The position numbers and the translations under genes were made by a program. DNA of 64,000 nt from a virus. The stretch spans positions 198,762-262,761 of IMG/VR virus record IMGVR_UViG_3300020429_000529; one strand, given 5' to 3'. This document shows positions 12,337-58,511 of this stretch, one piece after another. The notes under the pieces are model-generated. The model saw nothing but the letters and a program-made list of their open reading frames with translations, was not told where the DNA came from and did not search any database. Position 1 is the stretch's first letter; each line of letters begins with the position of its first letter.

Positions 12337-12770
12337 TGAAGATTGCGCTACCAGGCAAGACTGATGTCCTACGAGTTGGATCGGACCCCATTCTGTTGAG
12401 CAGAATGAAGGGCGTTCATGTGGACTTCGATGGTAAGCGAGTTTTGTATCAGGCGTGGGTCGTTACGAGCGATCACAACAAGCTCAAGCCTCCCATGAAG
12501 AACGTCATCGCAACCGATTCGTTCGAGATTCAGTCTGCTGGTACTTTTACGTCTGACAACGTATCGCATCCGTGCCATGTCCATCGGGCTGTTTATCACG
12601 CTGCAAAGCATATGTATCTTGTCGAGTTCACGTGCGGGCTCGATATGGAATCTGATCTGAAACCTACAACCATACAAAAAGGCATGTCGAATACACCGAA
12701 TACTGAAACAGACATAGCCGTTAAGGATGTTGCTGATAATGGCAGAGGAAACTTCATCGAGTTCGACTAA
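12333..12770 (+). CDS. hypothetical protein ending in RGNFIEFD
   Basis: 145-aa ORF. The C-terminal motif is similar to that of the preceding ORF. Confidence 0.4.
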   Translation: MMKIALPGKTDVLRVGSDPILLSRMKGVHVDFDGKRVLYQAWVVTSDHNKLKPPMKNVIATDSFEIQSAGTFTSDNVSHPCHVHRAVYHAAKHMYLVEFTCGLDMESDLKPTTIQKGMSNTPNTETDIAVKDVADNGRGNFIEFD

Positions 12771-13515
12771 GAGTATCAACGAACTCTCGGGCGCTCACAA
12801 AGAGCAGATGGCCTTCATTCTCGGAGCGGGGCCATCTCTACATTTCCAGGACTTAGAACCGCTTCATAACTATGTCACCTTTGCTGTCAATTCTGGTCTC
12901 CTAAAGATGCCAGATTGCGATTACTTTGTGACAGATGATGGCGCTGCGGCAGATTGGAACTACTTCAGAGACACCGCCAAGAATAGCCATTGCAAGAAGC
13001 TTCTTTTCCGCGCCAAGCTAAAGAAGTCGGCATCTCACTTTCGCCAAAATGAAGTCTTCTGGTACGATCATGTCAGAGAGCATAGCCCTGACTTTGACGG
13101 AGCCAATCTGAACGGCTATGAAATGGGACCAGTCAATCCTCTCATGGCCGCAAGAACCTCAGCAGGGTCAGCGGTACATGCTGCGCACATCATGGGGTGT
13201 AGTCCGATTGTTCTTCTCGGATGCGATTCGTGTCATAAGTACGGCAAGCGATATTTCTGGCAGTTCCCCAAGGAAGAGAAAGCGTACCGAGTCAATGATT
13301 CTCGACCGCCTTGGACAAAGGCTGACAGAGGCCAGCTTAGGGGCAAGCCGGTTGACCAGCATTGCATAGATTTCGATGTCTATTGGAAGCGAGTTGCCAA
13401 GGCCAATCCTGGTGTAAACATCATCTATGCGTCAGAGGGTGGACTGATTGATGCGTTCCCGTCGATGAAGCTGACAGAAGTGTTAGCGGAATACGGCGGG
13501 CGCACCAAGCAATGA
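12727..13515 (+). CDS. GT42/DUF115 (MAF, CstII-like) putative nonulosonic-acid (sialyl) transferase, paralog 1
   Basis: An N-terminal GAGPSL motif and an LLGCDSCH motif resemble CstII GNGPSL ... LSGIDFY. It is a tandem paralog of the next gene. Confidence 0.5.
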   Translation: MLLIMAEETSSSSTKSINELSGAHKEQMAFILGAGPSLHFQDLEPLHNYVTFAVNSGLLKMPDCDYFVTDDGAAADWNYFRDTAKNSHCKKLLFRAKLKKSASHFRQNEVFWYDHVREHSPDFDGANLNGYEMGPVNPLMAARTSAGSAVHAAHIMGCSPIVLLGCDSCHKYGKRYFWQFPKEEKAYRVNDSRPPWTKADRGQLRGKPVDQHCIDFDVYWKRVAKANPGVNIIYASEGGLIDAFPSMKLTEVLAEYGGRTKQ

Positions 13516-14261
13516 ACCTCAAAGACCTCGAAGACAAGCATAAGGGCAAACTCGGGTTTGTAGTAGGAGCAGGGCCATCGCTCCATTTTCAAGATGTTGA
13601 GCCCCTTAGCAACTACGTCACAATAACCGCAAACTCGGGTATTCTCAAAATTCCAGATTGCGACTACTTCGTCAGCGATGACGAAGGCGTTCGCCATTGG
13701 AACTACTACAGAGTCACAGCCAAAAACAGTAAGTGTACCAAGCTACTGTATCGAGCCAAGCTCGGAGATCATATCGGGCACTTCAAGCCCGAAGAGGTTT
13801 TGCTCTTTGATCACAAATCCTGGTATGAGCCAAGCAAAAGGGCATGGAAAGAAGGCGGCGGAACGATGACCAAGGATGCCGAAGCACCGATTATTGGCGC
13901 TCGGACATCTCTTGCAACCGGCCTTCATTGGGCTCACATTATGGGTTGCGATCCCATCGTTCTTCTCGGGTGCGATTGCTGCTACAAGGGTCGTAACCGT
14001 TACTTCTGGCAGTTCCCTGGTGAAACCAAGGGATACCAGATGAATAACCGACCTGTCTTTTCTACTCCGAATCGAGGGTTGAAAAAGAACAAGCCGGTCG
14101 ATAATCACTGTGTTGACTTCCTTGAGTATTGGAAGAAGCTCGCCGAAGAAGCCAAAGGCGTTGCGAACATCATCTACGCATCAGAGGGCGGCATCCTTGA
14201 TGTCTTTCCTTCGATGACTCTGGTTGAGGTTCTTGAGAAGTACGGAGATAGGACCAAATGA
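13512..14261 (+). CDS. GT42/DUF115-like putative sialyltransferase, paralog 2 (tandem duplicate)
   Basis: GAGPSLHFQDVEPLSNYVTITANSGILKIPDCDYFVSDD and LLGCDCCYKG are highly similar to the preceding ORF. Confidence 0.5.
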   Translation: MNLKDLEDKHKGKLGFVVGAGPSLHFQDVEPLSNYVTITANSGILKIPDCDYFVSDDEGVRHWNYYRVTAKNSKCTKLLYRAKLGDHIGHFKPEEVLLFDHKSWYEPSKRAWKEGGGTMTKDAEAPIIGARTSLATGLHWAHIMGCDPIVLLGCDCCYKGRNRYFWQFPGETKGYQMNNRPVFSTPNRGLKKNKPVDNHCVDFLEYWKKLAEEAKGVANIIYASEGGILDVFPSMTLVEVLEKYGDRTK

Positions 14262-14962
14262 TAAACGACCGCAGAGTCCTTGCAATCATACCGGCACGAG
14301 CCGGATCTAAAGGCGTTCCTGGTAAGAACTATCAAGACCTTGCAGGCAAGCCTCTTATTTCATGGAGCATCGAGGCCGCTATCAAGAGCGAGCTTATTGA
14401 TGCTATTTGCGTCACGACCAACTGCGATGAGTGCGCGAAGATCGCCAAGCGATACGAGAAGGATCATGTTATTACGATCCGTCGTCCCGAAGATCTTTGT
14501 TCGGCTACATCAAGAACAGAAGATGCCATGTCTCATGCCGTGGCATGTCTTGGCGAGAAGTGGGGATATGTCTGTCTGCTTCAGCCAACATCTCCCGCTC
14601 GTCCTCGAAGGCTGATCGATCGGGCCATCATGAAGATGATCGATACGGAGTCGGACAGCGTTATCACGGTAACATCAGAGACGCCTTTCTTTTGGCGAGT
14701 TACTCCCGATGCTCATCAGCCCTACCCGCTGTATTCCAATATCCGCCGTCCCATGCGTCAGGATCTTGACGACTCAGAGATGTTCTATCACGACAACGGC
14801 AACTTTTACGCCGTTGAAGGAGAGTTGTTGAGAGAGTATGGACGGATTGGAAGGAAAACCGCTCTTCAGGTAACGACTAAGTATGAAAGTATGCAAATAG
14901 ATACTGAAGAAGACTTCGCTGTTATGAACTCGATGGCGGAGGTATATGGCCCCCTGATCTAA
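14258..14962 (+). CDS. neuA: acylneuraminate (CMP-nonulosonate) cytidylyltransferase
   Basis: AIIPARAGSKGVPGKNYQDLAGKPLI is the N-terminal signature of the CMP-NeuAc/CMP-Kdo synthetase family. Confidence 0.7.
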   Translation: MINDRRVLAIIPARAGSKGVPGKNYQDLAGKPLISWSIEAAIKSELIDAICVTTNCDECAKIAKRYEKDHVITIRRPEDLCSATSRTEDAMSHAVACLGEKWGYVCLLQPTSPARPRRLIDRAIMKMIDTESDSVITVTSETPFFWRVTPDAHQPYPLYSNIRRPMRQDLDDSEMFYHDNGNFYAVEGELLREYGRIGRKTALQVTTKYESMQIDTEEDFAVMNSMAEVYGPLI

Positions 14963-14972: not shown

Positions 14973-15845
14973 GTGGAATACCCAACCCCTAATGTCATTG
15001 CCGAGATTGGCTGCGTGCATCTCGGTAAACCTGAAAGAGCTAAAGAGCTATGTAAGCTGGCAAAGCTTTGCTCCGCAGATTACGTCAAGTTCCAAAAGAG
15101 GAATCCCGAAGAGAGTACGCCTGTTCATATGAGGGACAAGCCTCATCCGAACAAGATCTTTGCTTACGGCGAGACTTACCTTGAGCATCGCCAGAATCTC
15201 GAACTCAGCATCATTGAGCATGCGGAGATCAAGCAGTTCTGCGAAGATATCGGTATCGGTTACTCGACATCGGTCTGGGATCTCACTTCAGCAAAAGAGG
15301 TCGTAGAGCTTGACCCCGAGTTTGTGAAGATCCCGAGCGCTTGCAATCAACACTATGAGATGCTGAAGTATCTCGTTGACAACTTCAAGGGCGATATTCA
15401 TGTTTCAACGGGCATGACTGATCGAAATGAGATGCAAGCTCTTCGCGAGTTTGTAGGTCAGAATCCCGATCGCTTTGTTGTCTACCATTGCACGAGCAAG
15501 TACCCATGCGAGTTTGATGATCTTCACTTGCTTGAGATAGAACGTCTCAAAAGCGAATGGAAGACCCGCATTGGTTTCAGCAACCACGGTAAGGGTATCG
15601 CTGCGGATGTAGCGGCATACATGCTTGGCGCAGAATGGATCGAGCGACACTTTGTTGATGATCGAACAATGCGTCATACTGATGCTGCTGCGAGTCTTGA
15701 GTCGCCCGGATTGCAGAGGCTCTGCAGAGACTTGAGAGCGATCCGTCGTGCATTGGTAAATCGGCCAGATGAAATGGACGAAGAAGAGTTGCTGCAGCGG
15801 CACAAGATGAAGTTCCACGGAGACAGTTATGGGTCTGGACATTGA
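14973..15845 (+). CDS. neuB: NeuB-family nonulosonic acid (sialic/legionaminic/pseudaminic) synthase, TIM-barrel core only
   Basis: IAEIGCVHLGKPERAKELCKLAKLCSADYVKFQKRNPEE matches the NeuB N-terminus. There is no C-terminal SAF domain. GTG start. Confidence 0.7.
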   Translation: MEYPTPNVIAEIGCVHLGKPERAKELCKLAKLCSADYVKFQKRNPEESTPVHMRDKPHPNKIFAYGETYLEHRQNLELSIIEHAEIKQFCEDIGIGYSTSVWDLTSAKEVVELDPEFVKIPSACNQHYEMLKYLVDNFKGDIHVSTGMTDRNEMQALREFVGQNPDRFVVYHCTSKYPCEFDDLHLLEIERLKSEWKTRIGFSNHGKGIAADVAAYMLGAEWIERHFVDDRTMRHTDAAASLESPGLQRLCRDLRAIRRALVNRPDEMDEEELLQRHKMKFHGDSYGSGH

Positions 15846-16317
15846 TAAGGTCAAGATGTTTGCGGTCGATGTTGATGGAACGCTCACAAACGGTCTCTAC
15901 ACCGTGGACGAATCAGGCATCGTTTCCAAGAGCTTTCATACCCGAGATTTTTACGCGCTCAATCGAATGAAGCAGCTTGGCTTCACGATTGTCATCATCA
16001 CATCAGCGCAAGATACTGTCATCGAAGAGAAGTGCCGTCCATTCGATTTCCTTGTCTATACAGGTGTTGAGAACAAGGCCGAAGAGATGGGCCGCATCCT
16101 GAAAGCTCACAAGATGAAGTGGGAGAATCTTGGGTATATCGGAGACGCAGAGAACGATCTTGAGTGCATGTCACATGCGGCATTCACAGGATGCCCTCTG
16201 GATGCAATCCCCGAAGTTGCAGAAAGTATCAATTATCAGTCTGTCCAGCACGGCGGGCACGCTGCTGTCTATGACATTATGCGTAAGTATTGCGATTACG
16301 CTGCTCTCGACTGGTGA
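15829..16317 (+). CDS. KdsC-like HAD phosphatase (nonulosonate-9-phosphate or KDO-8-P phosphatase)
   Basis: FAVDVDGTLTNG (DxDGT motif) and GDAENDLECM motif III. Size and layout are typical of KdsC. Confidence 0.7.
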   Translation: MGLDIDKVKMFAVDVDGTLTNGLYTVDESGIVSKSFHTRDFYALNRMKQLGFTIVIITSAQDTVIEEKCRPFDFLVYTGVENKAEEMGRILKAHKMKWENLGYIGDAENDLECMSHAAFTGCPLDAIPEVAESINYQSVQHGGHAAVYDIMRKYCDYAALDW

Positions 16318-16342: not shown

Positions 16343-16753
16343 ATGTCAGAGTTTCACACGGTTCAGACCGAGTTTCTGCAGGACAATGAGGGAGCCTTGA
16401 TAAAGGCTCTGCAAGACATTGGGTACGAGCCCATTGTCTACGAAGACGCTGTTCATCTCGAAGGATACAGGGGAGACAAGAGAGAGCAGAAGGCTCACAT
16501 TGTCATTCCTCGCAAACAGATCAGCAACGCCAGCAACGATATCGGATTCGAGCGATTGGAGAACGGCAAGTACCGTCTTCATGTTTCTGAGTTCGATGAG
16601 ACTGGCTGGAAGAAGCAGTCTGAGAAACTGGTTCAGTATTACGGCAAGGCTGTTGTAGAGTCGATCGCTGAGTCTTCTGACTACTCGATGGTTGAGGAAG
16701 TTGAGGACGAAGATGGCACCATCCGTATCCGTATGCGGATCAACGAGTATTGA
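16343..16753 (+). CDS. DUF1257-like protein
   Basis: MSEFHTVQTEFLQDNEGALIKALQDIGYEP...GYRGDKREQKAHIVIPRKQ...DIGFERLENGKYRLHVSEFD matches the pattern I recall for the DUF1257 family. Confidence 0.4.
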   Translation: MSEFHTVQTEFLQDNEGALIKALQDIGYEPIVYEDAVHLEGYRGDKREQKAHIVIPRKQISNASNDIGFERLENGKYRLHVSEFDETGWKKQSEKLVQYYGKAVVESIAESSDYSMVEEVEDEDGTIRIRMRINEY

Positions 16754-17675
16754 TCTCGCTGATGGGCGGATCGAATGCTCGCTCTGTCCGATCCGCTGCA
16801 AGCTCCGTGAGGGACAGCGAGGCCGTTGCATGGCTCGGTACTCGGATGGTCAGTCGATCCTCTTAGAAGCCCCTCAGATCAGTTCTGCGGCTATCGAGCC
16901 GATCGAGAAGAAACCTCTCTATCACTACAAGCCCAATCTTCGAACTCTGTCGTTCGGAGGTTATGGCTGCAACATGTCCTGCGATTTTTGTCAGAACTGG
17001 ATGGTTTCGCAAGAGAAGCCTTCTGATCTGATGGACGGCTATCAGCTTATCAGTATGGCCCGAGAGCATGAATGCGATGCTCTCTGTATGACATACAACG
17101 AGCCGCTGATCTACTTTGAGTTCTTAGATTTCCTGCGACAGTCTTGGGATCAAGATCTGGTCATCAAAACCAATGCCTATTGCGAGGCCGATCCATGGTC
17201 TGAGGTCTGCGATTGGGTCGATGCCATGAATATCGACTGGAAGGGCTCTGAGGCTCGCTACAGGGCTGTCGCAAAGACAGATGGGGCGACGACCCTTCGA
17301 CGCATCGAAGAGGCTCTGGCGGCGTCTGTGCATGTCGAGATCAGCGTTCCTGTCTATCTTGATGGAGAGGATGACGAGTACCTCGATTTTGCTGATTGGT
17401 TGTCGAGCCTCGATCGATCAACGCCTATCCATCTGCTCAAGCTCTTTCCCGCATTCAGGAACGTGTCGCAGCCTGCTACTCCCGACAAGAAGATCTCTCG
17501 TATCCGAGATGCGATGCTTGAGCGTCTTGATTACGTCTATGCTCACAATATCTTTGGCGAAGCTGGACGAGAGATGAAGAGAACCATCTGCAGATCTTGC
17601 GGGCAAAAAATCGCTGATCGGACGGGTCTTCGTACCGAGTTTTCTGTCTGTGGATGCGGCACGATTAGGACATAA
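16692..17675 (+). CDS. radical SAM enzyme (PflA / AmmeMemoRadiSam-like)
   Basis: The CNMSCDFCQNW CxxxCxxC cluster and an N-terminal Cys motif (CSLCPIRCKL...GRC) resemble PFL-activating-enzyme-like radical SAM proteins. It lies inside the glycan island. The start is uncertain (16692 or 16713). Confidence 0.65.
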   Translation: MRKLRTKMAPSVSVCGSTSIDLADGRIECSLCPIRCKLREGQRGRCMARYSDGQSILLEAPQISSAAIEPIEKKPLYHYKPNLRTLSFGGYGCNMSCDFCQNWMVSQEKPSDLMDGYQLISMAREHECDALCMTYNEPLIYFEFLDFLRQSWDQDLVIKTNAYCEADPWSEVCDWVDAMNIDWKGSEARYRAVAKTDGATTLRRIEEALAASVHVEISVPVYLDGEDDEYLDFADWLSSLDRSTPIHLLKLFPAFRNVSQPATPDKKISRIRDAMLERLDYVYAHNIFGEAGREMKRTICRSCGQKIADRTGLRTEFSVCGCGTIRT

Positions 17676-17718
17676 ACCGCTTCTGGACGATACATGAGTA
17701 TCGTACCTGGGAGCAAGT

Positions 17719-18771
17719 ATGTCTAAACTCGATATCTTTCATGTCATACCGACGCTGTTTCCGTATGGGGCATATAGCTCGCTCTCGGAACTCCATTACG
17801 CAATCGACAAGTATTACGGAGACGTTGGACAATATATCTTGTCTCTGAAAGACGAGAATCATAAGGGGATGTTCGAACTCCCTCACAAGATCGTTCCATT
17901 GAGCGGTCTCAAAGCGAAGATCCAATCCAAGTCAACGAATCCGGTTGTCTTTTTTCACAAGCTCTCAGCGACAGATTGCAAGCCTGTGTCCGCTGTTCTT
18001 TACAATGACATACCCTTTGTCATTGTAAATCATACGCAGACTAATAAGCCGAGAGGTTTTGCTCGCAACAATGGTATCGTTGCGGTGTCCGATCATATGT
18101 ACCAAACATTGTCAAAGGGCTTCAAGGGATTCAATTTTCATCGTATCCGAAATGGCGTCAACGGCGAACGCTATGAGAACATCGAGCCCTATTACCCTGA
18201 CGAAGTTGAAGGCTACTTTGTTACGGGTCGGATGAACAACTTCAATGGATGCAAGCATCCGAACGACTGGATCCCGTGGGTCAAGGCGACTTGGATCGGC
18301 TCTCCTCATTGGCATGACTATCTTGGCGACGGTCAATACTTTCAACGAGCCAGTCAGCAGGCCAACAAGCGGGGTCGATCAGCCATGCGACCCAATGTCT
18401 GCAATATGCCAGGTCGAATCAACGGCTTCAAAGACAAGGTTGCCTATCTGAAGCGATGGCAAGTATTCTTGTACGAGATCCGAGGAACTGAAGGTACGAG
18501 CATGGCTCTTCTCGAAGCGCTTGCTTGCGGAATCCCTGCCATCATCAACAACAAGCCAGGAAACCATGAGATTGTCACAAAGAAGGTCAATGGCTATGTC
18601 TACAACAGCAGAGAACAACTGCTTGCAAAGATAAAATACCTGGTTGAAAACCCAGCCTATCTTGAAGACTTGAGCGCCAGCACGAAGGCCAACTTTGATG
18701 CCAAGCTCGACGCAAGGTACATGGCGAAAGAATACGTCGATCTGGCGAAGAAGGTCATCAATGAGTTCTGA
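17719..18771 (+). CDS. GT-B glycosyltransferase (GT4-like)
   Basis: The C-terminal EGTSMALLEALACGIPAIINN motif is typical of the GT1/GT4 retaining glycosyltransferases. Confidence 0.65.
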   Translation: MSKLDIFHVIPTLFPYGAYSSLSELHYAIDKYYGDVGQYILSLKDENHKGMFELPHKIVPLSGLKAKIQSKSTNPVVFFHKLSATDCKPVSAVLYNDIPFVIVNHTQTNKPRGFARNNGIVAVSDHMYQTLSKGFKGFNFHRIRNGVNGERYENIEPYYPDEVEGYFVTGRMNNFNGCKHPNDWIPWVKATWIGSPHWHDYLGDGQYFQRASQQANKRGRSAMRPNVCNMPGRINGFKDKVAYLKRWQVFLYEIRGTEGTSMALLEALACGIPAIINNKPGNHEIVTKKVNGYVYNSREQLLAKIKYLVENPAYLEDLSASTKANFDAKLDARYMAKEYVDLAKKVINEF

Positions 18772-19540
18772 GAAGCCTCTGTTCTCTATTTTGACCTGCT
18801 CCTACAATCAGAAGCAGTTCCAAGGTGTTTGGCTGAAGTCCGTGTTGCGTCAGGACTATCGACCTCTTGAGGTTGTGTTTGTTGATGATTGCTCCGATAC
18901 AAACGATGCAAAAGCTCTTGAGAAGCATCGCAAGCTATTCGAGGATGCAGGTATAGATCTCACGATTCATCGCAATCAAGACAGTCTCTACTGCGCCTCT
19001 TCTTACCTTGAGGCTCTGCGTCTTGCTAAAGGAGACTACTTCGGGGTTGTTGACGCTGATGATGCTTTGACTGAGGGATCTGTTTCGGCTGTCATGAAGT
19101 GCTATCTCAAGCATCCTGATGTTGGCTTTATCTATACGCAGTTTGATTGGTGTAACTCTGAAATGGGAAACTGCCGCAGGGGATTCTGCAGACAACCAGC
19201 AAGGGGTCGTAATCTGTTGACGGGAGAGAAGAGTCCGCAGTCAAGGCATTGCTATTCTCACTGGCGGACGTTTAGGCGGCTTCCTGATATTGAGTCGATT
19301 TTCAAGCCAAGGTTGAGATGTTCAGTTGACAAGTATATGGGCTACCGTCTTGAGGAGTTGGCTCCAGGAGTCTTCTTAAATCGGGTATGTTACAAGTATC
19401 GTAACGGCGTATCTTCGGGGGTAACTCAAAACGAAAAGTCGATAGAAACATGGAAGTCGGTACGAAGAGAAGTCATGCGGCGCAGAAAAGCCAATCAAAC
19501 CAAGGTCTATCCAATCAGGACAATACAGACTAAACGATGA
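18761..19540 (+). CDS. GT2 family glycosyltransferase
   Basis: FSILTCSYNQ ... VVFVDDCSDTND is the GT-A N-terminal signature. The ORF track starts at 18695; the ATG at 18761 overlaps the upstream stop. Confidence 0.65.
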   Translation: MSSEKPLFSILTCSYNQKQFQGVWLKSVLRQDYRPLEVVFVDDCSDTNDAKALEKHRKLFEDAGIDLTIHRNQDSLYCASSYLEALRLAKGDYFGVVDADDALTEGSVSAVMKCYLKHPDVGFIYTQFDWCNSEMGNCRRGFCRQPARGRNLLTGEKSPQSRHCYSHWRTFRRLPDIESIFKPRLRCSVDKYMGYRLEELAPGVFLNRVCYKYRNGVSSGVTQNEKSIETWKSVRREVMRRRKANQTKVYPIRTIQTKR

Positions 19541-20478
19541 GACTATCGCTATCAAGAAGTTTGAAAGGCGACCGAGGAGTAAATCACTTCATGCGTCGTC
19601 TCGTGAAGCATCTGAAGTCAGATTACGATGTCAAGATTGTAGATGCCAAGGCTCCGTCTGATATCCATCTGGCAGTCATCAGCGGCATCAAGCCTGGCAC
19701 AAAGAACGTCTTGCGTCTGGATGGCGTCTACTATGACGTTGGTCGTCTCAAGATGAATGTCCCCATTCTGAAGGCTCTCAAGGCCGCAGATGGAGTTGTC
19801 TACCAGAGCGCATGGTGTCAGACATTCGTTCAGAAGATGCTCAGAGCAAAGCCTCGTAGTTCTACGGTTGTATGGAACGGCGTCGATCAGTCTCAGTTCA
19901 AGCTCCCGAAGCAGAAGAACCCCCATGGCTTTGATAAGGTGTTCGTCTCATGCGCTCACTGGCGACCCAATAAAAGACCTGAAGCTATGGCTGAGGCCTT
20001 CATCCAGGCCAACAATCTGACTGATTTGAACTTGGGTTTCTACTTCATAGGTAAGGTTGAAAAGCGAGCCAAAGTCGATCATCCCAATATCATCTACCAC
20101 GGGACGGTCTCGAATGACTCTTTACCGGAGTTGTATTCTCAATCAGACTACATGGTTCACATTTGTCACATTGATGCCTGCCCCAACTCGGTTGTCGAGG
20201 GGCTTTCGGCAGGGCTGCCTGTCTTGAGCAACAACTTGTCGGGCACTCCTGAGATTGTTGGCAAGAGCGGAATCATTCTTCCGATCGACAAGCCATTTAA
20301 CTTCAAACCGTTGCATGATATCAACTCGGTCGGGTCATCCTCTGTAAGGATCAAGACTCTGCGACAAGGCATGCTGAGCATGCTTGATAAAGATTGGAAC
20401 ATAGAAAGACCAGACCTCGATATCAAGGTCTCGGCGAGGAAGTATTATGACTACTTCTGCGAAATCCTCAAGTCCTAA
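19537..20478 (+). CDS. GT-B glycosyltransferase (GT1/GT4-like)
   Basis: CPNSVVEGLSAGLPVLSNN C-terminal GT-B motif. Confidence 0.6.
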   Translation: MRLSLSRSLKGDRGVNHFMRRLVKHLKSDYDVKIVDAKAPSDIHLAVISGIKPGTKNVLRLDGVYYDVGRLKMNVPILKALKAADGVVYQSAWCQTFVQKMLRAKPRSSTVVWNGVDQSQFKLPKQKNPHGFDKVFVSCAHWRPNKRPEAMAEAFIQANNLTDLNLGFYFIGKVEKRAKVDHPNIIYHGTVSNDSLPELYSQSDYMVHICHIDACPNSVVEGLSAGLPVLSNNLSGTPEIVGKSGIILPIDKPFNFKPLHDINSVGSSSVRIKTLRQGMLSMLDKDWNIERPDLDIKVSARKYYDYFCEILKS

Positions 20479-21271
20479 GACGACTATCGTTGTTTCGAAC
20501 TACAACTACAAGCGGTACGTCGGTGCGTGCCTTGAAAGCTGCGCGAAACAGACAAACCCTTGCAAGGTCATTATTGTTGATGATTGTTCGACCGATAGTT
20601 CTTGGCAGGTTATCAAGAAGACCATTGACGAGAATCCTCATTTCTCTGCAATCCGACTGAACGCAAACAGCGGAGGCAACGCCAGGGGCAAGAACGTCGG
20701 TATCTTCTATGCGAAGACCCCATATATCATGTGTCTCGATTCTGATGATGCTCTTGTTCCGAAGGCAATTGAGAAGCTTGAAGACAGTATCGAGGGCGTT
20801 GATATTGTCCATGGCAAGGCTCGTCGAGTCGAGACAACAGTCGATACCTTCAAGGGGATGATGGCGAAAAAGTATCAGACCTGGGAACGATACGAAAAGT
20901 TTGAAAACACTCCCGAAGACAGCATCGAATGGTATAAGTGCATGGAGGCCTCAACCATCCTTGTTCGTCGAAATGTCTATGAGCATGTAGGTCTTTTTAA
21001 CGAAGACCTGAAGTGGAAGATAGACAGAGAGATGTGGTATAGAGCAATCAACGAGGGACATTCTCGTCGATTCCTTGATCTCCATGTTTCTCTCTATCGA
21101 GGTCATCCGCAGCAGATTACAAGAAACCCGAAGAGGAAGAAGCCGCTCAAGATTGACGAGAAGTTTGAGCAGATTATCCGTTCGTATGGAACCAAAACCG
21201 ACAAGAGGCTTTCGTTGGACTCGTACAACCCCGAACCTCATGTCCTTAAGACCATTGGGGCACCTCTCTAA
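20447..21271 (+). CDS. GT2 family glycosyltransferase
   Basis: TIVVSNYNYKRYVGACLESCAKQTNPCKVIIVDDCSTDSS is the GT-A signature. Confidence 0.65.
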   Translation: MTTSAKSSSPKTTIVVSNYNYKRYVGACLESCAKQTNPCKVIIVDDCSTDSSWQVIKKTIDENPHFSAIRLNANSGGNARGKNVGIFYAKTPYIMCLDSDDALVPKAIEKLEDSIEGVDIVHGKARRVETTVDTFKGMMAKKYQTWERYEKFENTPEDSIEWYKCMEASTILVRRNVYEHVGLFNEDLKWKIDREMWYRAINEGHSRRFLDLHVSLYRGHPQQITRNPKRKKPLKIDEKFEQIIRSYGTKTDKRLSLDSYNPEPHVLKTIGAPL

Positions 21272-21273
21272 GT

Positions 21274-22134
21274 ATGGAATACTTCAAGCTCATCAACGGA
21301 CAGACAGGACGGAACACGGGCTACATCATGGTCCGTCGTCCTCCTATCAATAGGAAGCGCTGGAAAGAAGTCCAGAAGAGATACGAAGGCAAGATCATCG
21401 GCATTTCTTGCAATCGTGATTTCCCTCGCAAGAGTCCCGATGTTGTAGACGTAGCTTCGGGCTGGTTGCATGTCTTCCGAGATCCGCAGGCGCATGGAAT
21501 ACCTGAGTCAATGCCTCAGATGCTATTGGGCGAATCGGACTTCGTTTCCGTTGATAAGAGGTTTGTCACAAAGAAGAAACGCTTTGACTTCTACTATGTC
21601 TGTCTTGGTTCTTCTTCGCAACGTCGCTCCAAGAACTTCAAGCTCTTTCAAGCGAGTCTCCCAATTCTCTGCGGAGAACTTGGACTAAGAGGCGTCGTCA
21701 TCGGTATGAAGCAGTTCAAGGACATGGAGCAATGGAATAGTTATCTCACATGGACGGGCCGCAGACGACCAAGCGAAGTTTTCAACTACATTGGTCAGTC
21801 TCGGTTTGGCTTCTTTCCAAACGTAACAGACGCATCCCCAAAGGCCCTTACCGAGGGCTTTGCTCTCAATGTGCCGTCGCTTGTCAACAACAAGATCTAC
21901 GGAGGCTGGAAATACATAGACGACCAGACTACTGGTCATTTCTTCAATCCGGATCTGACAGATCTCAAGGAGAAGGCTAAGCTCATAACAGCAGGCCACT
22001 ACTCCGCAAGGGATACTTTCTACAAGGACTGGGGGACCAAGAATGCCAGCCGTAAACTTGGCAAGTTTCTCCGAGATATCTACGGTAAGCAAGGTCTGAA
22101 GAAAGTGTATATCCAAAAAGCGCAGAAGGTGTAA
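21274..22134 (+). CDS. putative GT-B-like glycosyltransferase / hypothetical
   Basis: The C-terminal FGFFPNVTDASPKALTEGFALNVPSLV resembles the GT-B E-x7-E region. Weak call. Confidence 0.35.
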   Translation: MEYFKLINGQTGRNTGYIMVRRPPINRKRWKEVQKRYEGKIIGISCNRDFPRKSPDVVDVASGWLHVFRDPQAHGIPESMPQMLLGESDFVSVDKRFVTKKKRFDFYYVCLGSSSQRRSKNFKLFQASLPILCGELGLRGVVIGMKQFKDMEQWNSYLTWTGRRRPSEVFNYIGQSRFGFFPNVTDASPKALTEGFALNVPSLVNNKIYGGWKYIDDQTTGHFFNPDLTDLKEKAKLITAGHYSARDTFYKDWGTKNASRKLGKFLRDIYGKQGLKKVYIQKAQKV

Positions 22135-22135
22135 G

Positions 22136-22894
22136 ATGAGCGATAAGCCACTTGTATCCATTGTGATACCTCTTTACAACTATGCTCGGTACGTTTCAGA
22201 TTGCTTGAAGTCTGTTCTGTCTCAAACGCATCAGAACATCGAAGTCATTGTCATTGACGACTGTTCAAGCGATAATCCAAAGAAGGTCATCAAGCCTTTT
22301 CTTGAGACAGATAGTCGGCTGCAGTTTCACAAGAACGACAGCAATCGAGGCGTAAGCTTTACACGGAATCGAGGCATCAGGATGTGCAAGGGAAGTTACA
22401 TCTGCTATATCGATGCCGATGACATGATGACTTTGAAATCGATTGAGCTAAGGCTTGCAAAGCTTCAAGCGTCTGAGAGGATATGGGTCCATGGCAGGGT
22501 CTATGACCTCATTAATGGCAAGAGGGTGCCCGACAAGAGCTTCCATGGTATTCAGAAACAGTATCGCTCTGCGATGCCGAAGCCTGTAACCCGATATGCG
22601 AAATCGGTTCATTCTCAATCTGTTCTTGTTGAGCGAGAGTTCTTCAAGATACTTGGTATGTTCGAAGAGGATATCCATTACGGAGAAGAGCAAGACTTAT
22701 GGCGTCGGGCTCTTGCCTTTGGTTATCATCCTGAATACGTTAGCGACTTTGTTGCGGTTCATAGAAATCACAAGCAGCAAACCAGATTTGGCAAGTATAG
22801 GCCAAGAAAAGAAGAGTGGTACAAAGAGTCTGAGCGACGACTGAAGATCAGGCTAAAGAACGGTATTACAGCCGAGAACACGATATTGCTATGA
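22136..22894 (+). CDS. GT2 family glycosyltransferase
   Basis: VSIVIPLYNYARYVSDCLKSVLSQTHQNIEVIVIDDCSSDN and a DAD (DxD) motif. Confidence 0.65.
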   Translation: MSDKPLVSIVIPLYNYARYVSDCLKSVLSQTHQNIEVIVIDDCSSDNPKKVIKPFLETDSRLQFHKNDSNRGVSFTRNRGIRMCKGSYICYIDADDMMTLKSIELRLAKLQASERIWVHGRVYDLINGKRVPDKSFHGIQKQYRSAMPKPVTRYAKSVHSQSVLVEREFFKILGMFEEDIHYGEEQDLWRRALAFGYHPEYVSDFVAVHRNHKQQTRFGKYRPRKEEWYKESERRLKIRLKNGITAENTILL

Positions 22895-23508
22895 TCGTAC
22901 ACGGAAAGAGATGCATCTTCATACATATCAACCGCTGCGCCGGGAACAGCATGGAGGAGATTCTGCGCCCCTTCACTCAGGGTAAGTTTGGGCTTCAATC
23001 TCCGTATCCAAGTCGGTCAGCCAAACATCTCAATGCTATTGAGCATCGCAATGCTGCTCACAGGTTAGCATGGCGAGATTACTACAAGTTCTCTTTTGTG
23101 AGGAATCCTTGGGACAAAATGCTTTCGTACTATCTTCTCAAGAGGCGAGACAACAAAGACTTCAAGAAACAGTACCGAACGTTCGACGACTGGATCAAGT
23201 CGGATTTCTTTACTCTCAAGCTTCCTTACATGCATACTTATCGTCATCGCAAGTTTACCAATCAGATCGATTGGCTCACAAACGAGCGAGGTCAGAATCA
23301 GATGAACTTCGTAGGCAGGTTTGAGACGATAGCAAAGGACTGGGCAACGGTTGCGGCCAGAATCGGCGTCGATCGAAAACTTCCTCACACCAACAAGACA
23401 AGTCACGATCATTATTCTTGCTACTATGACGATGAAAGCATAGAGATTGTTCGAAAGCTATTTGAGAAAGACATAGCGTACTTCAGGTACGATTTCGAGG
23501 AGGCCTGA
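22891..23508 (+). CDS. carbohydrate sulfotransferase (Sulfotransfer_2-like)
   Basis: CIFIHINRCAGNSMEEIL is the 5'-PSB-like motif (compare IFIHIPKTGGTS). VRNPWDKMLSYY is the 3'-PB motif (compare RDPxxRxxSxY). Confidence 0.6.
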   Translation: MIVHGKRCIFIHINRCAGNSMEEILRPFTQGKFGLQSPYPSRSAKHLNAIEHRNAAHRLAWRDYYKFSFVRNPWDKMLSYYLLKRRDNKDFKKQYRTFDDWIKSDFFTLKLPYMHTYRHRKFTNQIDWLTNERGQNQMNFVGRFETIAKDWATVAARIGVDRKLPHTNKTSHDHYSCYYDDESIEIVRKLFEKDIAYFRYDFEEA

Positions 23509-24140
23509 TGCTATTTCAGTGTAGGACAAAGCTCAAGAATGCAATGGATGATCCCAAGATCCGAAGCGTGCTTGAAATAGGCAGCGGCCTAAATGCTACT
23601 CCGGTCATCGTCAAGAAGTTTGATCGAGGAGCTATCGACCGCTATGTTTCTCTTGAAACAAGTTCCGAATGGGCTGAGAAGGTCAACGGCAAGTGCAAGA
23701 GAGAAGTCGTCACGCTGGCGGACTTTGGCTTCGACAAAGAACGAGGCATCTTTGCGTATGACTACAGCAGCGTTTACAAGTTTGATCTCATCTTCGTAGA
23801 TGGGCCTGGCAAGCTTCAGGGAGACGACTATAGCGCTGCGGTCAAGCTCTGCGAACAATCAGACTTTTGTTTGAGTTCTCCTACCGCTGCTGGTATCCAG
23901 TCCATCCATATGATCGAGGCATTCCGCAGCAACATCCATGACGATACGGTTATCATGGTAGACGGTCGCAGGGCGGCTGTCCTCTATTATCTGAGCAGGT
24001 ATCAGGATGAGTTTGATTTCTTCTTTGGCGGGACTCCGTATCCCAAGAAGCGACTCAAGGAAATACTGAAACCAGAGTTTCGCCATCTCGCTAAATTCAA
24101 TGTCGGAGAAATCACGACCATGGTAAGGAAGAAGAAGTGA
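23508..24140 (+). CDS. putative class I SAM-dependent O-methyltransferase (Methyltransf_24-like)
   Basis: VLEIGSGLN motif I and DLIFVDGPG (compare DLIFIDGDH). Confidence 0.45.
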   Translation: MLFQCRTKLKNAMDDPKIRSVLEIGSGLNATPVIVKKFDRGAIDRYVSLETSSEWAEKVNGKCKREVVTLADFGFDKERGIFAYDYSSVYKFDLIFVDGPGKLQGDDYSAAVKLCEQSDFCLSSPTAAGIQSIHMIEAFRSNIHDDTVIMVDGRRAAVLYYLSRYQDEFDFFFGGTPYPKKRLKEILKPEFRHLAKFNVGEITTMVRKKK

Positions 24141-24787
24141 GAGTATTTGACTTTAGCACAGCAAGGCAAGCCGATGCGGTTGTTGTGATCGGCGGCGGTC
24201 CAACCGCAGGCAGACGGCTGCCAGATGCTCGAAAGTTCGCAGAAGAACGAGGCGCTCTCGTCTATTCGGCCAACTATGAGCATGACGATTTGCCTTCAGA
24301 TTACATCTGCTTCGCTACGCCATCGAAGTTCAAAGAGTGTCTCAACAAGAAACCGAACTGCAAAGATCTTGTTGTTCGAGACAAGGTGGCTCCAAAGACC
24401 AAGAGGTATCCTGGGTACAACTATTACCAGTTCTGCTCGCAAGACGCCAGCGATGGGGCATATTCGATCAAGAGCATCCCCTTGACAAAGTATGGTCATT
24501 TCCCCCTTTACAACATTGGTAACGCTGGCTTTTCAACCATAGCCCTCGCTTGCTTGAGCAGACCCAAGGATATGCTTCTTGTTGGCTTTGATGGATTGAG
24601 AGACGAAAGCAGTAAGCTCACATACGAAAACAAAGTCATGGCGTATCCTGCAAAGAAGGGCGCTGACAAGAAGATCTACTTCGGCAAGGTCATTCTTCAG
24701 TTTGCCCTTGATAGGGGCATACGGTTGCATGCCTTTGAGGATGACGCCCTATGGGGATGGCAGAGTAAGGCAAATATCATCGCATGA
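24137..24787 (+). CDS. DUF115/GT42-like protein, paralog 3
   Basis: VVVIGGGPTAG ... LLVGFDGLRDE has the same GxGPS + GxDG architecture as the 12727 and 13512 genes. Confidence 0.4.
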   Translation: MRVFDFSTARQADAVVVIGGGPTAGRRLPDARKFAEERGALVYSANYEHDDLPSDYICFATPSKFKECLNKKPNCKDLVVRDKVAPKTKRYPGYNYYQFCSQDASDGAYSIKSIPLTKYGHFPLYNIGNAGFSTIALACLSRPKDMLLVGFDGLRDESSKLTYENKVMAYPAKKGADKKIYFGKVILQFALDRGIRLHAFEDDALWGWQSKANIIA

Positions 24788-25443
24788 AGAATGTAAGCTA
24801 CGACATTTTCAAGCCTGTTGATTCGGTAATCATCATGGCTGCGGGACCATCTATCAGCAGTAACTTTGATGGTATACGCAGGTTCCAGGCGGAGAATCCT
24901 GATCACGTGGTTCTTGCTTGCAACTATGATTTTCCGATTGATGCGGAGTATACGGTCTTCATAGACAATGGCAGATATCGCAGGTTCATCGATTCGATTC
25001 GTAGCCCCAACATCATCATTGCTCCCTACTTTGGGCCTTGGCTTAAGAAGAAGCACTTCACGGCAGATCGTACCTTCTACAAGCTAAAATGGAATGCTGA
25101 CGTACAGCCATATGACGTAAGCGGAATTCTCGTCAACAAAGATGGCAGTACGGGTCATAAGCTTGGCAACTGCGGAATGACATGCTTGTATCTTGCTCAC
25201 ATGTTTAGGCCAACCAAGGTTCTTGTTGCTGGTCTCGACGGCCCTCAGCCTGACAATAAGACTGTCAAGCATTTCAACAATATCACAAGGACTTGGACTA
25301 AGAAAGACATCGATCGAGTAGATCCGAAGAAGAAGTACCTTCGAAAGCTTGTCAAGTTTTTGCGAGCAAGAGGTGCGGAGACTTACACGTTTAGTAACTG
25401 TCCTTTTTGGGAACAGCAGAGCATAGCGAGGATTTGGGAATGA
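24784..25443 (+). CDS. DUF115/GT42-like protein, paralog 4
   Basis: VIIMAAGPSISS ... VLVAGLDGPQPDN. Confidence 0.4.
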   Translation: MKNVSYDIFKPVDSVIIMAAGPSISSNFDGIRRFQAENPDHVVLACNYDFPIDAEYTVFIDNGRYRRFIDSIRSPNIIIAPYFGPWLKKKHFTADRTFYKLKWNADVQPYDVSGILVNKDGSTGHKLGNCGMTCLYLAHMFRPTKVLVAGLDGPQPDNKTVKHFNNITRTWTKKDIDRVDPKKKYLRKLVKFLRARGAETYTFSNCPFWEQQSIARIWE

Positions 25444-26102
25444 GCCTGGTAGAGGCATTCATCTTCACTAATGGAGCAGAAATTGCCAAGCATTGCGAGC
25501 AATGCCTGAAGGCGCAGACGGTTCCCTGCCCATATCGCATTATACAAGGCAAGTCTCTGTTGGATGCGATACAGTTTGCCATGGAAGAGAGCGTATCGGA
25601 TTTCTTCATCAAGCTCGATGATGACATGTTGCTTCATCCGAGAGCGATTGAGTATCTAACTCCGAGGCTAAGGGTCTGTAGAGAGCGACGAAATCTCGCT
25701 ATGTACGGATGCAGGCTATGGGAGCCTTGGGGCAATAGGACAATTCGTTGCATCAAGGCATACAAGACCAAGGCTTGTCGAGACATTGGTTTTCGATCAG
25801 ACAAGAGAGGCAAGATAGATCGCGCCTTTGTTGCCGATATGACTCAGAAGGGGTACAGGCATCTGCAGGATCGAAGCGTGATTGCCGTTCATGGTTTGAG
25901 ATCGCTTTCGGATCAGCAGCAGTATCGTCGGCTTTGGGCCAGGAATGCTGGCAAGACCGTTTCTGAACTAAGATCGGTAGACAAGGATCAGACTCGCATT
26001 GTCTCAGTCGTTCCTTCATACAAAAAACAGGTCAAATGGATTCGCAAAATTGACACTGTAAACGAGAAGACCAAGTTTGGCAAGTTGCTAAGAGATGGGT
26101 AA
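25440..26102 (+). CDS. putative GT-A-like glycosyltransferase / hypothetical
   Basis: N-terminal layout with IKLDDDMLLHP (DxD-like). The ORF track starts at 25407. Weak call. Confidence 0.3.
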   Translation: MSLVEAFIFTNGAEIAKHCEQCLKAQTVPCPYRIIQGKSLLDAIQFAMEESVSDFFIKLDDDMLLHPRAIEYLTPRLRVCRERRNLAMYGCRLWEPWGNRTIRCIKAYKTKACRDIGFRSDKRGKIDRAFVADMTQKGYRHLQDRSVIAVHGLRSLSDQQQYRRLWARNAGKTVSELRSVDKDQTRIVSVVPSYKKQVKWIRKIDTVNEKTKFGKLLRDG

Positions 26103-26904
26103 TCGCATACGACAACTTTTCACGTTTCCTCAGGTTCAGCATCTACATGATCGGCTGAAGGCGAGGTACGGTCTTGAGGATCGGGCGACTAAGAAGGCTC
26201 CGATGATTTCCTTCGGCTGCTATCCTGGTAGCAAGAAAGAGATCCAGATGTTACTTAAGCAGCAGGATCTTGTCGTTGTCGTTTGGGCCGGTAGCGATGC
26301 CATGTATATGAGAATGCCCAAGCATCGCGAGATGATGAAGGCGGTCAAGAAGGCATCTCATTTCCGTCATATCGCTATCTCTCAATACATTGTCAAAGAC
26401 CTCAAAGCTCTCGGGATACGCCATGAGTTTCTCCCGGTTTCGCAGGTCAACGAATCAATGTTTTCGCCCGAGCCTATGGGGGACAGTATCTTCTTCTACG
26501 ATTCAGTTTCATCTCGTAAGAGCGTTTTCTATGGAAGCGAGATTGTCAAGGAGATCAAGGCCAAGATGCCTGGCGTCAAGTTTGTCTCGGGCGCTCAGGC
26601 AGGTAAGACTCATGTTTCATACGCATCAATGCCCGATGTCTATCGGAAGTGCTTCTTAGGACTAAGGCCGACCCCTCATGATGGTTTGCCGAATACGGCG
26701 GTTGAACTCGGCCTCATGGGACGGAGATGCATTTGCAATCATGAGCTACCAAACTGCCTTCGCTACAGAGATGTCAAAGACATCATGGAGATTATCGAGC
26801 GAGAGCAGGGTCGTATTGGTCAAACGGATATTGAGACGGCTGAAAAGATGAAACGATACATCAGTATACCTGATGATTGGCTAAATGAGGATCACTATGG
26901 CTGA
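26095..26904 (+). CDS. hypothetical protein, possibly glycosyltransferase-like
   Basis: GLRPTPHDGLPNTAVELGLMGRRCICN is weakly like a GT-B C-terminal segment. Confidence 0.3.
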   Translation: MGNRIRQLFTFPQVQHLHDRLKARYGLEDRATKKAPMISFGCYPGSKKEIQMLLKQQDLVVVVWAGSDAMYMRMPKHREMMKAVKKASHFRHIAISQYIVKDLKALGIRHEFLPVSQVNESMFSPEPMGDSIFFYDSVSSRKSVFYGSEIVKEIKAKMPGVKFVSGAQAGKTHVSYASMPDVYRKCFLGLRPTPHDGLPNTAVELGLMGRRCICNHELPNCLRYRDVKDIMEIIEREQGRIGQTDIETAEKMKRYISIPDDWLNEDHYG

Positions 26905-27562
26905 ATGGAATGCAAATAAGACTCGGATTATCTATGAGAGCGAAGAAGAGTTCTTGGAGATTCAATCTGGTCGAACCAAGGATGAACTTGAGCCTTACGA
27001 CTCAACGCAATACCCGCAAGTTGTAACTGATCTTCTTCGATTCTATCCCTACATCGAGAAGAACTCGTTGATCCTTGATGCTGGATGCAGAGACGGATGG
27101 ACCATGCTCCGCATGAAGGAAGATGGTTATAATTGCGTCACTGGTGTTGATGTTGTTCCAAGGGCTATCGATTTCTGTCATCAGAGGGGGCTGAACGCTT
27201 CTGTTCAGAACATTCAAGAGATGGACTTCGATGACGCCTCGTTTGATGCTGCCTTTTGCAGGCATACGCTTGAACACACCATCAACCCCAAGAAGGCATT
27301 GAAGGAGATGGCGAGGGTCGTAAAGCCCGGTGGCGTCGTCTTTGTAATCATTCCCATTGAGTCAGGCAAGAGGAAGCTCAAGGCGAGACGGAAGATCAAG
27401 TTTGGTCACTCTTATGTCTTTGAAGGCGACAACAAGTTCCTTGAACTGATCGATGATTCTCTATACAAGCTGGTTGGCCGATTCCATGACCAAACCATCA
27501 AATACATTGCTTCGATTTTTGTGCTGAGAAGGAGATCCGATGACGACGAAGCTGATAGCTGA
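26885..27562 (+). CDS. class I SAM-dependent methyltransferase
   Basis: ILDAGCRDGWTM (motif I), VTGVDVV (motif II) and VKPGGVVFV (post-III). Confidence 0.65.
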   Translation: MRITMAEWNANKTRIIYESEEEFLEIQSGRTKDELEPYDSTQYPQVVTDLLRFYPYIEKNSLILDAGCRDGWTMLRMKEDGYNCVTGVDVVPRAIDFCHQRGLNASVQNIQEMDFDDASFDAAFCRHTLEHTINPKKALKEMARVVKPGGVVFVIIPIESGKRKLKARRKIKFGHSYVFEGDNKFLELIDDSLYKLVGRFHDQTIKYIASIFVLRRRSDDDEADS

Positions 27563-28337
27563 ACTGTCAATGAACTTCATGGGCGACATGGAGCTTGCCG
27601 AAGAGATGATCTCTGCTGCCGCTCATGCAGGCGCAGATTACGTCAAGTTTCAAACCTGGAAGGTTGACAAGCTTGTAGAAGGTCCATGGGACAATGATGG
27701 GCGTCGAGAGGTCTACGAGAAGGCAGAGCTTTCTGAGGCCGATCATGAGCATCTGAAGGTCATCTGCGAGGCGAATGGGACGAAGTTCTTGACTTCGGTC
27801 TTCTCTCCTGATCTGCTCCCCATGGTCAGCGGTCTGAGCGATTCTGTGAAGATCGCAAGCACCGAATGTTGCAATCGAGAACTGATCGATCAAGCAACAA
27901 GGTTGTTTGAGAATGTCTTTGTGAGCGTTGGCGCTACGAATGCCGAAGACTACCGATATCTTGCGGATATCGAGAATGTCTACATGTTGCATTGCGTTTC
28001 GGCATACCCTTGTCCTGCAGATCAAGTCAACATGCCTCGCCTTGACTACATCAGGAGTTTGACTCCTCGCTTTGGTTATAGCGGTCATTACTTTGGCATA
28101 TGGGATGCTATTGCTGCCATCAGCAGAGGCGCAACAGTTGTAGAGAAGCACTTCACTACTGACCAATCTCTTCCGTTTCGAGATAACCAGTTTGCGATTT
28201 TGCCGCAAGATCTGGCTCTAATCAGAGAGTATGCCGATGAGTTCGATAGGATGAACATCGATCATGGGGTCGATATGCAATCCGCCGAGGCCGAAGTTAA
28301 GAAAGCGTACTCTGGCAGATGGATGGGCACCTCTTGA
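27540..28337 (+). CDS. second NeuB-family nonulosonic acid synthase (core TIM barrel)
   Basis: IAELSMNFMGDMELAEEMISAAAHAGADYVKFQTWK matches the NeuB/PseI N-terminus. Confidence 0.65.
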   Translation: MTTKLIAELSMNFMGDMELAEEMISAAAHAGADYVKFQTWKVDKLVEGPWDNDGRREVYEKAELSEADHEHLKVICEANGTKFLTSVFSPDLLPMVSGLSDSVKIASTECCNRELIDQATRLFENVFVSVGATNAEDYRYLADIENVYMLHCVSAYPCPADQVNMPRLDYIRSLTPRFGYSGHYFGIWDAIAAISRGATVVEKHFTTDQSLPFRDNQFAILPQDLALIREYADEFDRMNIDHGVDMQSAEAEVKKAYSGRWMGTS

Positions 28338-34846: not shown

Positions 34847-34889
34847 ATCTGGCCGATGTCATAGAATGTAACTGCAGGAGGATCTCTAA

Positions 34890-58345: not shown

Positions 58346-58510
58346 TGGCTGAACATCATGACAGCATGAAGCGACTCATGCAAAAAGTCGAGGGGAAGAA
58401 AACCGTGCAGAGCAAACCTATTGCAAAGGCTCAGTCGAATACAAGCAAGACAACCACGGTCAATGCCTCTTCAAAGAAACGTGGCTGCGGCTGTAAGCGG
58501 AGAAAGAAGT
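58346..58510 (+). CDS. small Lys/Arg-rich peptide (54 aa), not in the ORF track
   Basis: ATG at 58346 to TAG at 58508-58510. It ends SSKKRGCGCKRRKK. Confidence 0.25.
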
Positions 58511-58511
58511 A

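Follow-up and report, generated by a model that had tools for sequence, protein, structure and literature searches.

Tandem DUF115/Maf-like putative nonulosonate transferases within a conserved gene cassette of an uncultivated huge phage

The tandem genes and their family

The DNA analysed here, referred to as the window, is a 64,000-nt stretch (64 kb) of the IMG/VR record IMGVR_UViG_3300020429_000529 and comes from an uncultivated huge phage with a genome of roughly 500 kb. On its plus strand lie two adjacent open reading frames (ORFs) for putative nonulosonate transferases of the DUF115/Maf-like type, followed directly by genes of the kinds that make and activate such sugars. The upstream gene, ORF A, spans 12727-13515 (262 aa), and its downstream paralog, ORF B, which is the more widely conserved 'core' type, spans 13512-14261 (249 aa); the two overlap by 4 nt (ATGA). 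Translation of ORF A probably begins at the ATG at 12739 rather than at 12727, because an AAGGA sits 11 nt 5' of the former, giving a product of 258 aa.

The translation of ORF A contains GAGPSLHFQDLEPLHNYVTFAVNSGLLKMPDCDYFVTDD and LLGCDSCHK, and that of ORF B contains GAGPSLHFQDVEPLSNYVTITANSGILKIPDCDYFVSDD and LLGCDCCYK. The two proteins, A and B, were 54% identical over 249 residues by BLASTP (E = 6e-100), well past chance, which bore out the first-pass annotation of this DNA as holding two adjacent paralogs that share these motifs. Identity was 55-75% in the motif-bearing segments, and divergence peaked at residues 101-140 (20-30% identity) and 181-200 (35%). In an alignment with the sialyltransferase CstII, these two segments fall at the insertion that precedes R129 and at the lid. 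Since the donor-site motifs are common to both proteins while these two segments differ, A and B probably use a common donor and a different acceptor or linkage.

Both proteins matched to PF01973 (DUF115/Maf_flag10/MptE-like), with 36.7 bits for A and 36.6 bits for B over profile positions 13-169 of 171. This family is named for the archaeal kinase MptE and also holds the catalytic Maf_flag10/DUF115 domain of flagellin nonulosonate transferases. The PHROGs profile phrog_4603, 'alpha-2,3-sialyltransferase', was matched by A (E = 7.9e-11) and B (E = 3.4e-7) with partial coverage (profile positions 1-122 of 178). No match to the Pfam CST-I family was found for A or B at E≤1, and by sequence both fall outside glycosyltransferase (GT) family 42. 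Remote homology to GT42 was nevertheless detected with a broad profile of 108 family sequences (A3), which matched CstII over about 178 positions (profile 15-192, E = 1.4e-4), a lipooligosaccharide alpha-2,3-sialyltransferase (E = 1.2e-3) and Cst-I (E = 2.9e-3). The match of the same profile to MptE covered 24 N-terminal residues only (E = 0.058).

The predicted structure model (pLDDT 95.9) was in agreement with these profile matches in fold, which is common to A, B and GT42 (CstII/Cst-I). In the structure comparison, Maf was aligned over 198 residues with a Z value above that of MptE. The catalytic-domain family profile covered A and B end to end, and both have a central catalytic domain with the modified GT-A, sialyltransferase-like fold seen in Maf. 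The flanking N- and C-terminal acceptor-binding domains of Maf were present in neither A (258/262 aa) nor B (249 aa). The earlier label of the pair, GT42/DUF115-like (CstII/MAF-type), therefore holds for PF01973 membership and for remote GT42 homology, but not for GT42 membership by sequence or for a full Maf, of which only the catalytic domain is present. Nor did the searches return MptE as the sole relative, the outcome that the first-pass annotation had named as fatal to its proposal: the PF01973 threshold was passed and CstII/GT42 was matched at E = 1.4e-4 to 2.9e-3. Judged by sequence, A and B are best classed as formal PF01973 members that are remote GT42 homologs, belonging neither to GT42 by sequence nor to Maf by architecture.

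Each of the known relatives differs from the phage proteins in several respects. Maf enzymes (Magnetospirillum magneticum, PDB 5MU5; CbMaf; GkMaf) are of about 600 aa and bind flagellin through N- and C-terminal (e.g. TPR) domains or a GlfM partner, whereas the phage proteins are of about 250 aa, consist of the catalytic domain only, have no evident flagellin context and share about 13% sequence identity with Maf. Identity to the GT42 enzymes CstII and Cst-I of Campylobacter jejuni (PDB 1RO7, 2P56) is 14-20%. Two features set the phage family apart from CstII, namely a distinct C-terminal module (an invariant W220, with a tail of the form FP..L..VL) and the Cys-rich motif GCDCCY. Nor does the phage family conserve the acceptor loops of CstII, an enzyme that works on lipooligosaccharide at the membrane. 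With MptE, the archaeal 6-hydroxymethyl-7,8-dihydropterin pyrophosphokinase (PDB 8SD5), fewer residues were aligned and the pathway context is unrelated.

Elsewhere the DUF115-type domain is fused, in larger proteins, to GT2, sulfotransferase and FkbM/S-adenosylmethionine (SAM) methyltransferase domains, and these fusions tie the family to glycan assembly. One such fusion protein, P0210, combines a sulfotransferase domain with DUF115 and GT2. For thousands of the DUF115-type proteins (11,895 clusters), the automated name 'MptE-like pyrophosphokinase' is probably wrong. A role in defence was also considered and was rejected, as the PADLOC defence-protein models gave no meaningful match for A, B or the related ORFs C and D described below; an apparent mention of 'DUF115' in a BREX paper was discarded as a link, the domain there being DUF1156.

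Residues of A were aligned to CstII (query sequence identical to 1RO7) using hhalign in local mode, global mode being meaningless for this pair. The GAGPSL at 33-38 of A aligned with GNGPSL at 8-13 of CstII, N55 with N31, R143-T144-S145 with R129 and T131-S132, G165-x-D167 with G152-x-D154, position 170 (H in A; Y in B and most of the family) with Y156, Y176 with Y162, and H212 with H188, the catalytic base of CstII. The spacing from S145 to G165 exactly equals that from S132 to G152 in CstII. The likeness to the CstII signature GNGPSL...GIDFY that had been pointed out in the first-pass annotation thus reflects real homology, with aligned counterparts for the key CstII residues. In CstII, His188 reportedly acts as the general base, with Tyr156, Tyr162 and Arg129 acting on the CMP (cytidine monophosphate) phosphate and carboxylate.

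Across 122 diverse family domains, G165 was invariant, D167, S37, N55, D71 and G35 were each more than 90% conserved, and S145 was kept in 94. H212 was His in 78 of 96 close-family members. Every conserved donor-site and catalytic-candidate residue is present in both A and B. In Maf, D415 and E324 (MmMaf) have been shown to be critical, and a conserved Ser (CbMaf S334) is also required. Profile segment 121-159 matched Maf 390-428, and the equal spans (39) tentatively place D167 on Maf D415 by a span-based mapping; S145 and D71 are conserved and correctly spaced.

A Cys-rich family motif, MGC...LLGC-D-C-C-Y...H-C, was also observed at residues 158-213 of ORF A (about 13198-13365). It has no counterpart in CstII, and C168 was Cys in 70 of the 122 broad-family domains. 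The motif may represent a metal site or a redox feature.

The five-gene cassette and its history

ORF B is followed on the same strand by three genes that could supply a donor. The first encodes a NeuA-like CMP-nonulosonate synthetase (14258-14962; PF02348, E = 3e-21) and overlaps ORF B by 4 nt. The second encodes a NeuB-family nonulosonate (possibly 9-phosphate) synthase of a short form without an SAF domain (14973-15845; PF03102, E = 1e-61), and the third a type C0 HAD phosphatase of the KdsC/Kdn-9-P phosphatase family (15829-16317), Kdn being a deaminated sialic acid. The five genes A-B-NeuA-NeuB-HAD form a tightly packed operon, in which NeuA and NeuB are 10 nt apart and the remaining neighbours overlap by 4, 4 and 17 nt. 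The best solved relatives of NeuA were CMP-Neu5Ac (N-acetylneuraminic acid) synthetases (E = 3e-27 to 8e-17), with CMP-Kdo synthetases reaching only about 1e-5. NeuB scored 173.7 bits against TIGR03569, under the equivalog cutoff, and its PDB matches were PseI and NeuB. The phosphatase scored 82.8 bits against the NCBIfam KdsC model and 69 bits against that for Kdn-9-P phosphatase, both under the cutoffs, and its PDB matches were KdsC and BT1713-type phosphatases (3E81, E = 9e-8).

In divergent huge-phage contigs, UvrD is again followed by at least one DUF115 gene and after that by NeuA, NeuB and HAD, and the cassette was found in 17 of the 18 huge-phage loci holding a close homolog. At the locus L009 (252-kb contig, 37% identity) the cassette is isolated, in that no further glycosyltransferase and no sugar-modifying gene was seen within 9 kb of it. 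Because NeuB, phosphatase and NeuA occur there without a sugar-tailoring enzyme, this locus suggests a donor route from an abundant phosphosugar, for example mannose 6-phosphate (Man-6-P) to Kdn-9-P, Kdn and CMP-Kdn. The cassette product is likely to be a Kdn- or Neu5Ac-type sugar. The three enzyme types encoded downstream of B are also those of the Kdn pathway of Bacteroides thetaiotaomicron, whose Kdn-9-P synthase, Kdn-9-P phosphatase (BT1713) and CMP-Kdn synthetase have reportedly been characterised. That pathway differs in that the equivalog scores of the phage cassette are all under the cutoffs, and the phage substrate may be Man-6-P or N-acetylmannosamine 6-phosphate (ManNAc-6-P).

The cassette is flanked by further recurring genes. 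In the window the next genes after it (16343-17675) encode a DUF1257 protein and a radical SAM enzyme whose N-terminus carries an additional Cys-rich stretch, and both were also seen after the cassette in many relatives, such as L003, L009, L013 and L016. SpoVS-like and CxxCxxCC proteins are conserved upstream of the cassette. The UvrD helicase of the window, which was recognised via Pfam-annotated UvrD genes of related loci, is of 637 aa; that of L010 (3809-6799) carries an intein (Intein_splicing and Hint domains) and is of 996 aa.

Copy number varied among the cassette loci, with two DUF115 genes in 12, three in one and a single gene in five. The three-copy locus, L014 (6932-9152), lies on a 488-kb IMG/VR phage contig and has three tandem DUF115 genes before NeuA, NeuB and HAD. 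A tree built from the pairs of six genomes (200 bootstraps) joined the upstream copies found in the window, L003 and L011 with 97.5% bootstrap and the downstream ones found in the window, L003, L010 and L011 with 88.5%, while the two copies of one genome paired in none of the 200 bootstraps. A recent or independent tandem duplication was therefore rejected; since each of the two positions has an orthologous group of its own, the duplication is old. A third, very divergent upstream type (27-31% identity) was present at L001 and L009. The single copy that was examined (P0042 of L016) was 61% identical to B and 45% to A. From this pattern, the B type looks like the core enzyme and the upstream copy like an old, retained but dispensable addition.

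A comparable protein of an isolated phage is gp126 of the Caulobacter jumbo phage CcrColossus. A tblastn search with A against 50,697 phage records gave nothing at 1e-5; the search with B gave weak matches only (E = 6e-3 to 0.1), which led to gp126. Like A and B, gp126 is a standalone protein (216 aa), and hhalign aligned it to the family of A and B with a probability of 98.2% (E = 4.5e-14, 199 columns). It is, however, only about 21-24% identical, adjoins tail and lysis genes and other GTs, and lacks NeuA and NeuB. The gene for this 'putative alpha-2,3-sialyltransferase-like protein' (L007, 7971-8621) comes straight after the genes of two tail proteins, with two further GTs and the lysis cassette nearby. 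As CcrColossus can be cultured, gp126 offers a possible experimental entry point. NeuB homologs were found in just 3 of the 50,697 phage records.

Distant homologs annotated as sialyltransferase-like already exist in cultured jumbo phages. What is new lies at the system level and consists in a cassette conserved among huge phages, a paralog pair of ancient origin and a gene island of this size. Literature searches on phage-encoded nonulosonate transferases returned no direct precedent and, in the library searched, no discussion of gp126 or phrog_4603, and no mention of sialic acids or glycans was found in the huge-phage and jumbo-phage papers examined.

Proposed activity, acceptor and alternatives

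A and B are likely to be paralogous single-domain glycosyltransferases that use CMP-activated nonulosonic acids in the manner of Maf and CstII, whose type of fold they have. This assignment draws on the homology, the fold, the residue conservation, the operon structure and the recurrence of the cassette in huge phages. In the proposed scheme, the NeuB-type synthase would condense phosphoenolpyruvate with a phosphorylated hexose, the KdsC/Kdn-9-P-type phosphatase would strip the phosphate, and the NeuA-type synthetase would then form the CMP-sugar. A and B would bind this donor through the GAGPS loop, N55, R143-T144-S145, G165-x-D167 and Y176, and would transfer the sugar to a hydroxyl acceptor in an inverting reaction. 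Candidates for catalysis are H212 (aligned with CstII H188) and/or the acids D71 and D167, the latter aligned with Maf D415. The proposal is coherent, yet it would not surprise a specialist.

Several observations weigh against it. The Pfam scores of A and B are only about 2 bits over the PF01973 gathering threshold of 34.6 bits. When phmmer with A and a narrow 44-sequence profile were run against the PDB, no GT42 chain was found at E≤10 and no Maf was reached. Confidence in the CstII alignment is low near H188, and just 34 of the 122 broad-family domains have His at the position of H212; as D167 and D71 are each conserved in more than 90%, the acids appear the safer catalytic candidates across the family, and a role for H212 is tentative. 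None of the close homologs has been characterised biochemically. Five of the related loci have a single copy, so that the pair is not obligatory. There is no identifiable acceptor for A or B in the surrounding gene island, and the cassette is located in the replication region, away from structural genes.

The Pfam name and automated annotations suggest instead that A and B are small-molecule pyrophosphokinases of the MptE/thiamine-pyrophosphokinase type. This is very improbable and was rejected on the grounds of alignment extent, context and domain fusions. Similarity to MptE does not run the full length of the proteins but is confined to 24-33 N-terminal residues, in contrast to the 198 residues aligned with Maf at a higher Z and the roughly 178 positions matched to CstII. 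Pterin, folate and thiamine genes were not found near A and B, and no pterin genes were found in the window. The coupling to NeuA and NeuB in 17 of 18 close-homolog loci and the fusions to glycan-modifying domains also argue for a role with sugars. Within such a role, a donor other than the nonulosonate of the neighbouring pathway, such as CMP-Kdo or another nucleotide sugar, has some basis in the donor promiscuity of Maf enzymes, to which both Neu5Ac and Kdo are open as substrates for transfer, and in the lack of NeuA and NeuB near distant family members (L026-L034). It is nonetheless unlikely, given that the close homologs keep overlapping junctions and synteny with NeuA and NeuB and that the NeuA of the cassette resembles CMP-Neu5Ac rather than CMP-Kdo synthetases.

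The retention of two genes could also be explained if one paralog were catalytic and the other an acceptor-specificity or scaffolding subunit, as GlfM is with Maf-2, or if the two formed an obligate heterodimer. Maf-type enzymes need extra domains or a cis-encoded factor for their acceptor, and A and B have no such domains; two or more copies are retained in 13 of 18 loci, where copies of one locus never group; and in the second gene pair of the window, ORF C lacks the equivalents of D71 and S145. On the other hand, all conserved donor-site and catalytic-candidate residues are kept in both A and B, and the obligate heterodimer in particular is weakened by the five single-copy cassette loci and disfavoured by the dispensability of the upstream copy. 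A division of labour of this kind was thus judged improbable.

For the acceptor, the content of the surrounding island was considered. The island (12727-35753) extends over 23 kb and comprises 30 consecutive same-strand ORFs, including two NeuB genes, two NeuA-like genes and a NeuC gene. Pfam scans of the part from 16692 to 35753 further revealed GT4 and GT2 glycosyltransferases, two sulfotransferases, a methyltransferase, radical SAM and thiamine pyrophosphate (TPP) enzymes, and dehydrogenases and epimerases that include nucleotide-sugar enzymes. No membrane segment, defined as a hydrophobic 19-residue window of 1.6 or more, was predicted in any of the 30 ORFs, and an island-encoded membrane-based assembly of the Wzx/Wzy type was rejected on this basis. 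No flippase, polymerase, phosphoglycosyltransferase/initiating transferase or oligosaccharyltransferase was found among them either. It follows that the glycan would be assembled in the cytoplasm on a soluble acceptor, or that host machinery would be needed.

A cytoplasmic target, for instance virion proteins or the phage-built glycan, is the probable acceptor. A soluble acceptor would resemble the action of Maf on flagellin, or the virion glycosylation known in mycobacteriophages, and the position of CcrColossus gp126 directly after tail proteins fits a virion target. As the cassette invariably adjoins UvrD, DNA methylase and replication genes, a nucleic-acid target such as hydroxymethylated phage DNA may also be envisaged, but it is considered extremely improbable; no hydroxymethylase was found in the 64-kb window. 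A stronger version of the proposal, in which the five-gene cassette is a self-contained huge-phage system that makes a Kdn/sialic-acid-type sugar from central metabolites and attaches it in the cytoplasm directly to virion proteins, is speculative and rather doubtful. If true, it would be the first phage-encoded nonulosonic-acid protein glycosylation, carried out by enzymes without the acceptor-recognition domains of Maf.

Should A and B be nonulosonate transferases, a widespread huge-phage lineage (contigs of 160-550 kb) would make and transfer its own sialic-acid-like sugars. The 23-kb island would then amount to a membrane-free glycan factory, equipped with four genes of the sialyltransferase fold and two pathways for nonulosonates besides its sulfotransferases and methyltransferases, a parallel to the autonomous glycosylation systems of giant eukaryotic viruses. 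At about 250 aa, the enzymes would be the smallest Maf-type nonulosonate transferases and of possible use in glycoengineering.

The second gene pair and the wider window

The first-pass annotation had pointed to a second, more divergent tandem pair at 24137-25443. The pair exists and is of the same fold class, but the case for transferase function is weaker than for A and B. ORF C (24137-24787, 216 aa) is the first gene of this divergent DUF115-fold pair and ORF D (24784-25443, 219 aa), with a sialyltransferase-like/Maf-like fold, is the second, both on the plus strand. C and D were 24% identical by BLASTP (E = 2e-16) and were related to the A/B family by profile comparison (hhalign E = 3.8e-6, 141 columns) as well as by fold, which establishes that they share the fold class of A and B. 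Against PF01973, D scored 20.1 bits, under the threshold, and C had no match; phrog_4603 was matched by neither. Homologs of C and of D numbered three each among 5.8 billion proteins.

Both proteins keep the GGP(S/T), N and G-(F/L)-D-G motifs. R143 is replaced by Gly in both, S145 by Cys in D and by Ala in C, and C lacks the D71 acid. From these residues, a function shared with A and B is plausible but less well founded, and ORF C might be non-catalytic. The four genes may have multiple acceptor or linkage specificities, as proposed in the first-pass annotation. As to hidden further paralogs, 26095-26904 alone was examined and showed no similarity.

C and D lie about 2 kb upstream of a second nonulosonate pathway. 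This comprises a second NeuB-family synthase (27540-28337; PF03102, E = 3.9e-45), a second CMP-sugar cytidylyltransferase of the NeuA type (31561-32232; PF02348, E = 3.8e-13) and a NeuC-type hydrolysing UDP-GlcNAc 2-epimerase (32808-33911), which scored 311 bits against TIGR03568 and exceeded the cutoff of 235.9; all three are on the plus strand. Between the second NeuB and the second NeuA, at 28319-31582, genes for a 2-hydroxyacid dehydrogenase, a TPP-dependent enzyme and a GFO/IDH/MocA oxidoreductase were observed, which may serve in the tailoring of an unusual nonulosonate or its N-acyl group. The two sulfotransferase genes of the island (Sulfotransfer_2, PF03567) are at 22891-23508 and 32174-32818; phage-made sulfated glycans would be unusual.

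The attribution of the window to a huge phage is based on its gene content and its relatives. The genes of the neighbourhood are all on one strand and tightly packed, and the window holds genes for a UvsX-like recombinase, a Cas4-type exonuclease, a clamp loader, a processivity factor, a Toprim primase, a DNA methylase and a dNMP kinase. A copy of ORF C with 100% identity was found on the 502,461-bp ENA contig ERZ25074452:ctg12106_378x_c, and relatives of A on IMG/VR viral contigs of up to 548 kb. When the genomes of 185,579 bacterial and archaeal species were scanned with a pattern-based search, one weak fragment alone came up. The nearest isolated phages showed about 35-37% identity, in a topoisomerase.

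Three further observations were made outside the island. A 914-aa protein with a CCA-adding tRNA nucleotidyltransferase domain is encoded at 58421-61165, although the 64-kb window has no tRNA gene according to ARAGORN. The gene for a weak sigma-70-like factor (44115-44894) precedes one that resembles homing endonucleases of the LAGLIDADG/AP2 type (44950-45741). A further NAD-dependent sugar epimerase/dehydratase (51840-52772) is encoded some 16 kb beyond the island, in the midst of genes for replication and transcription.

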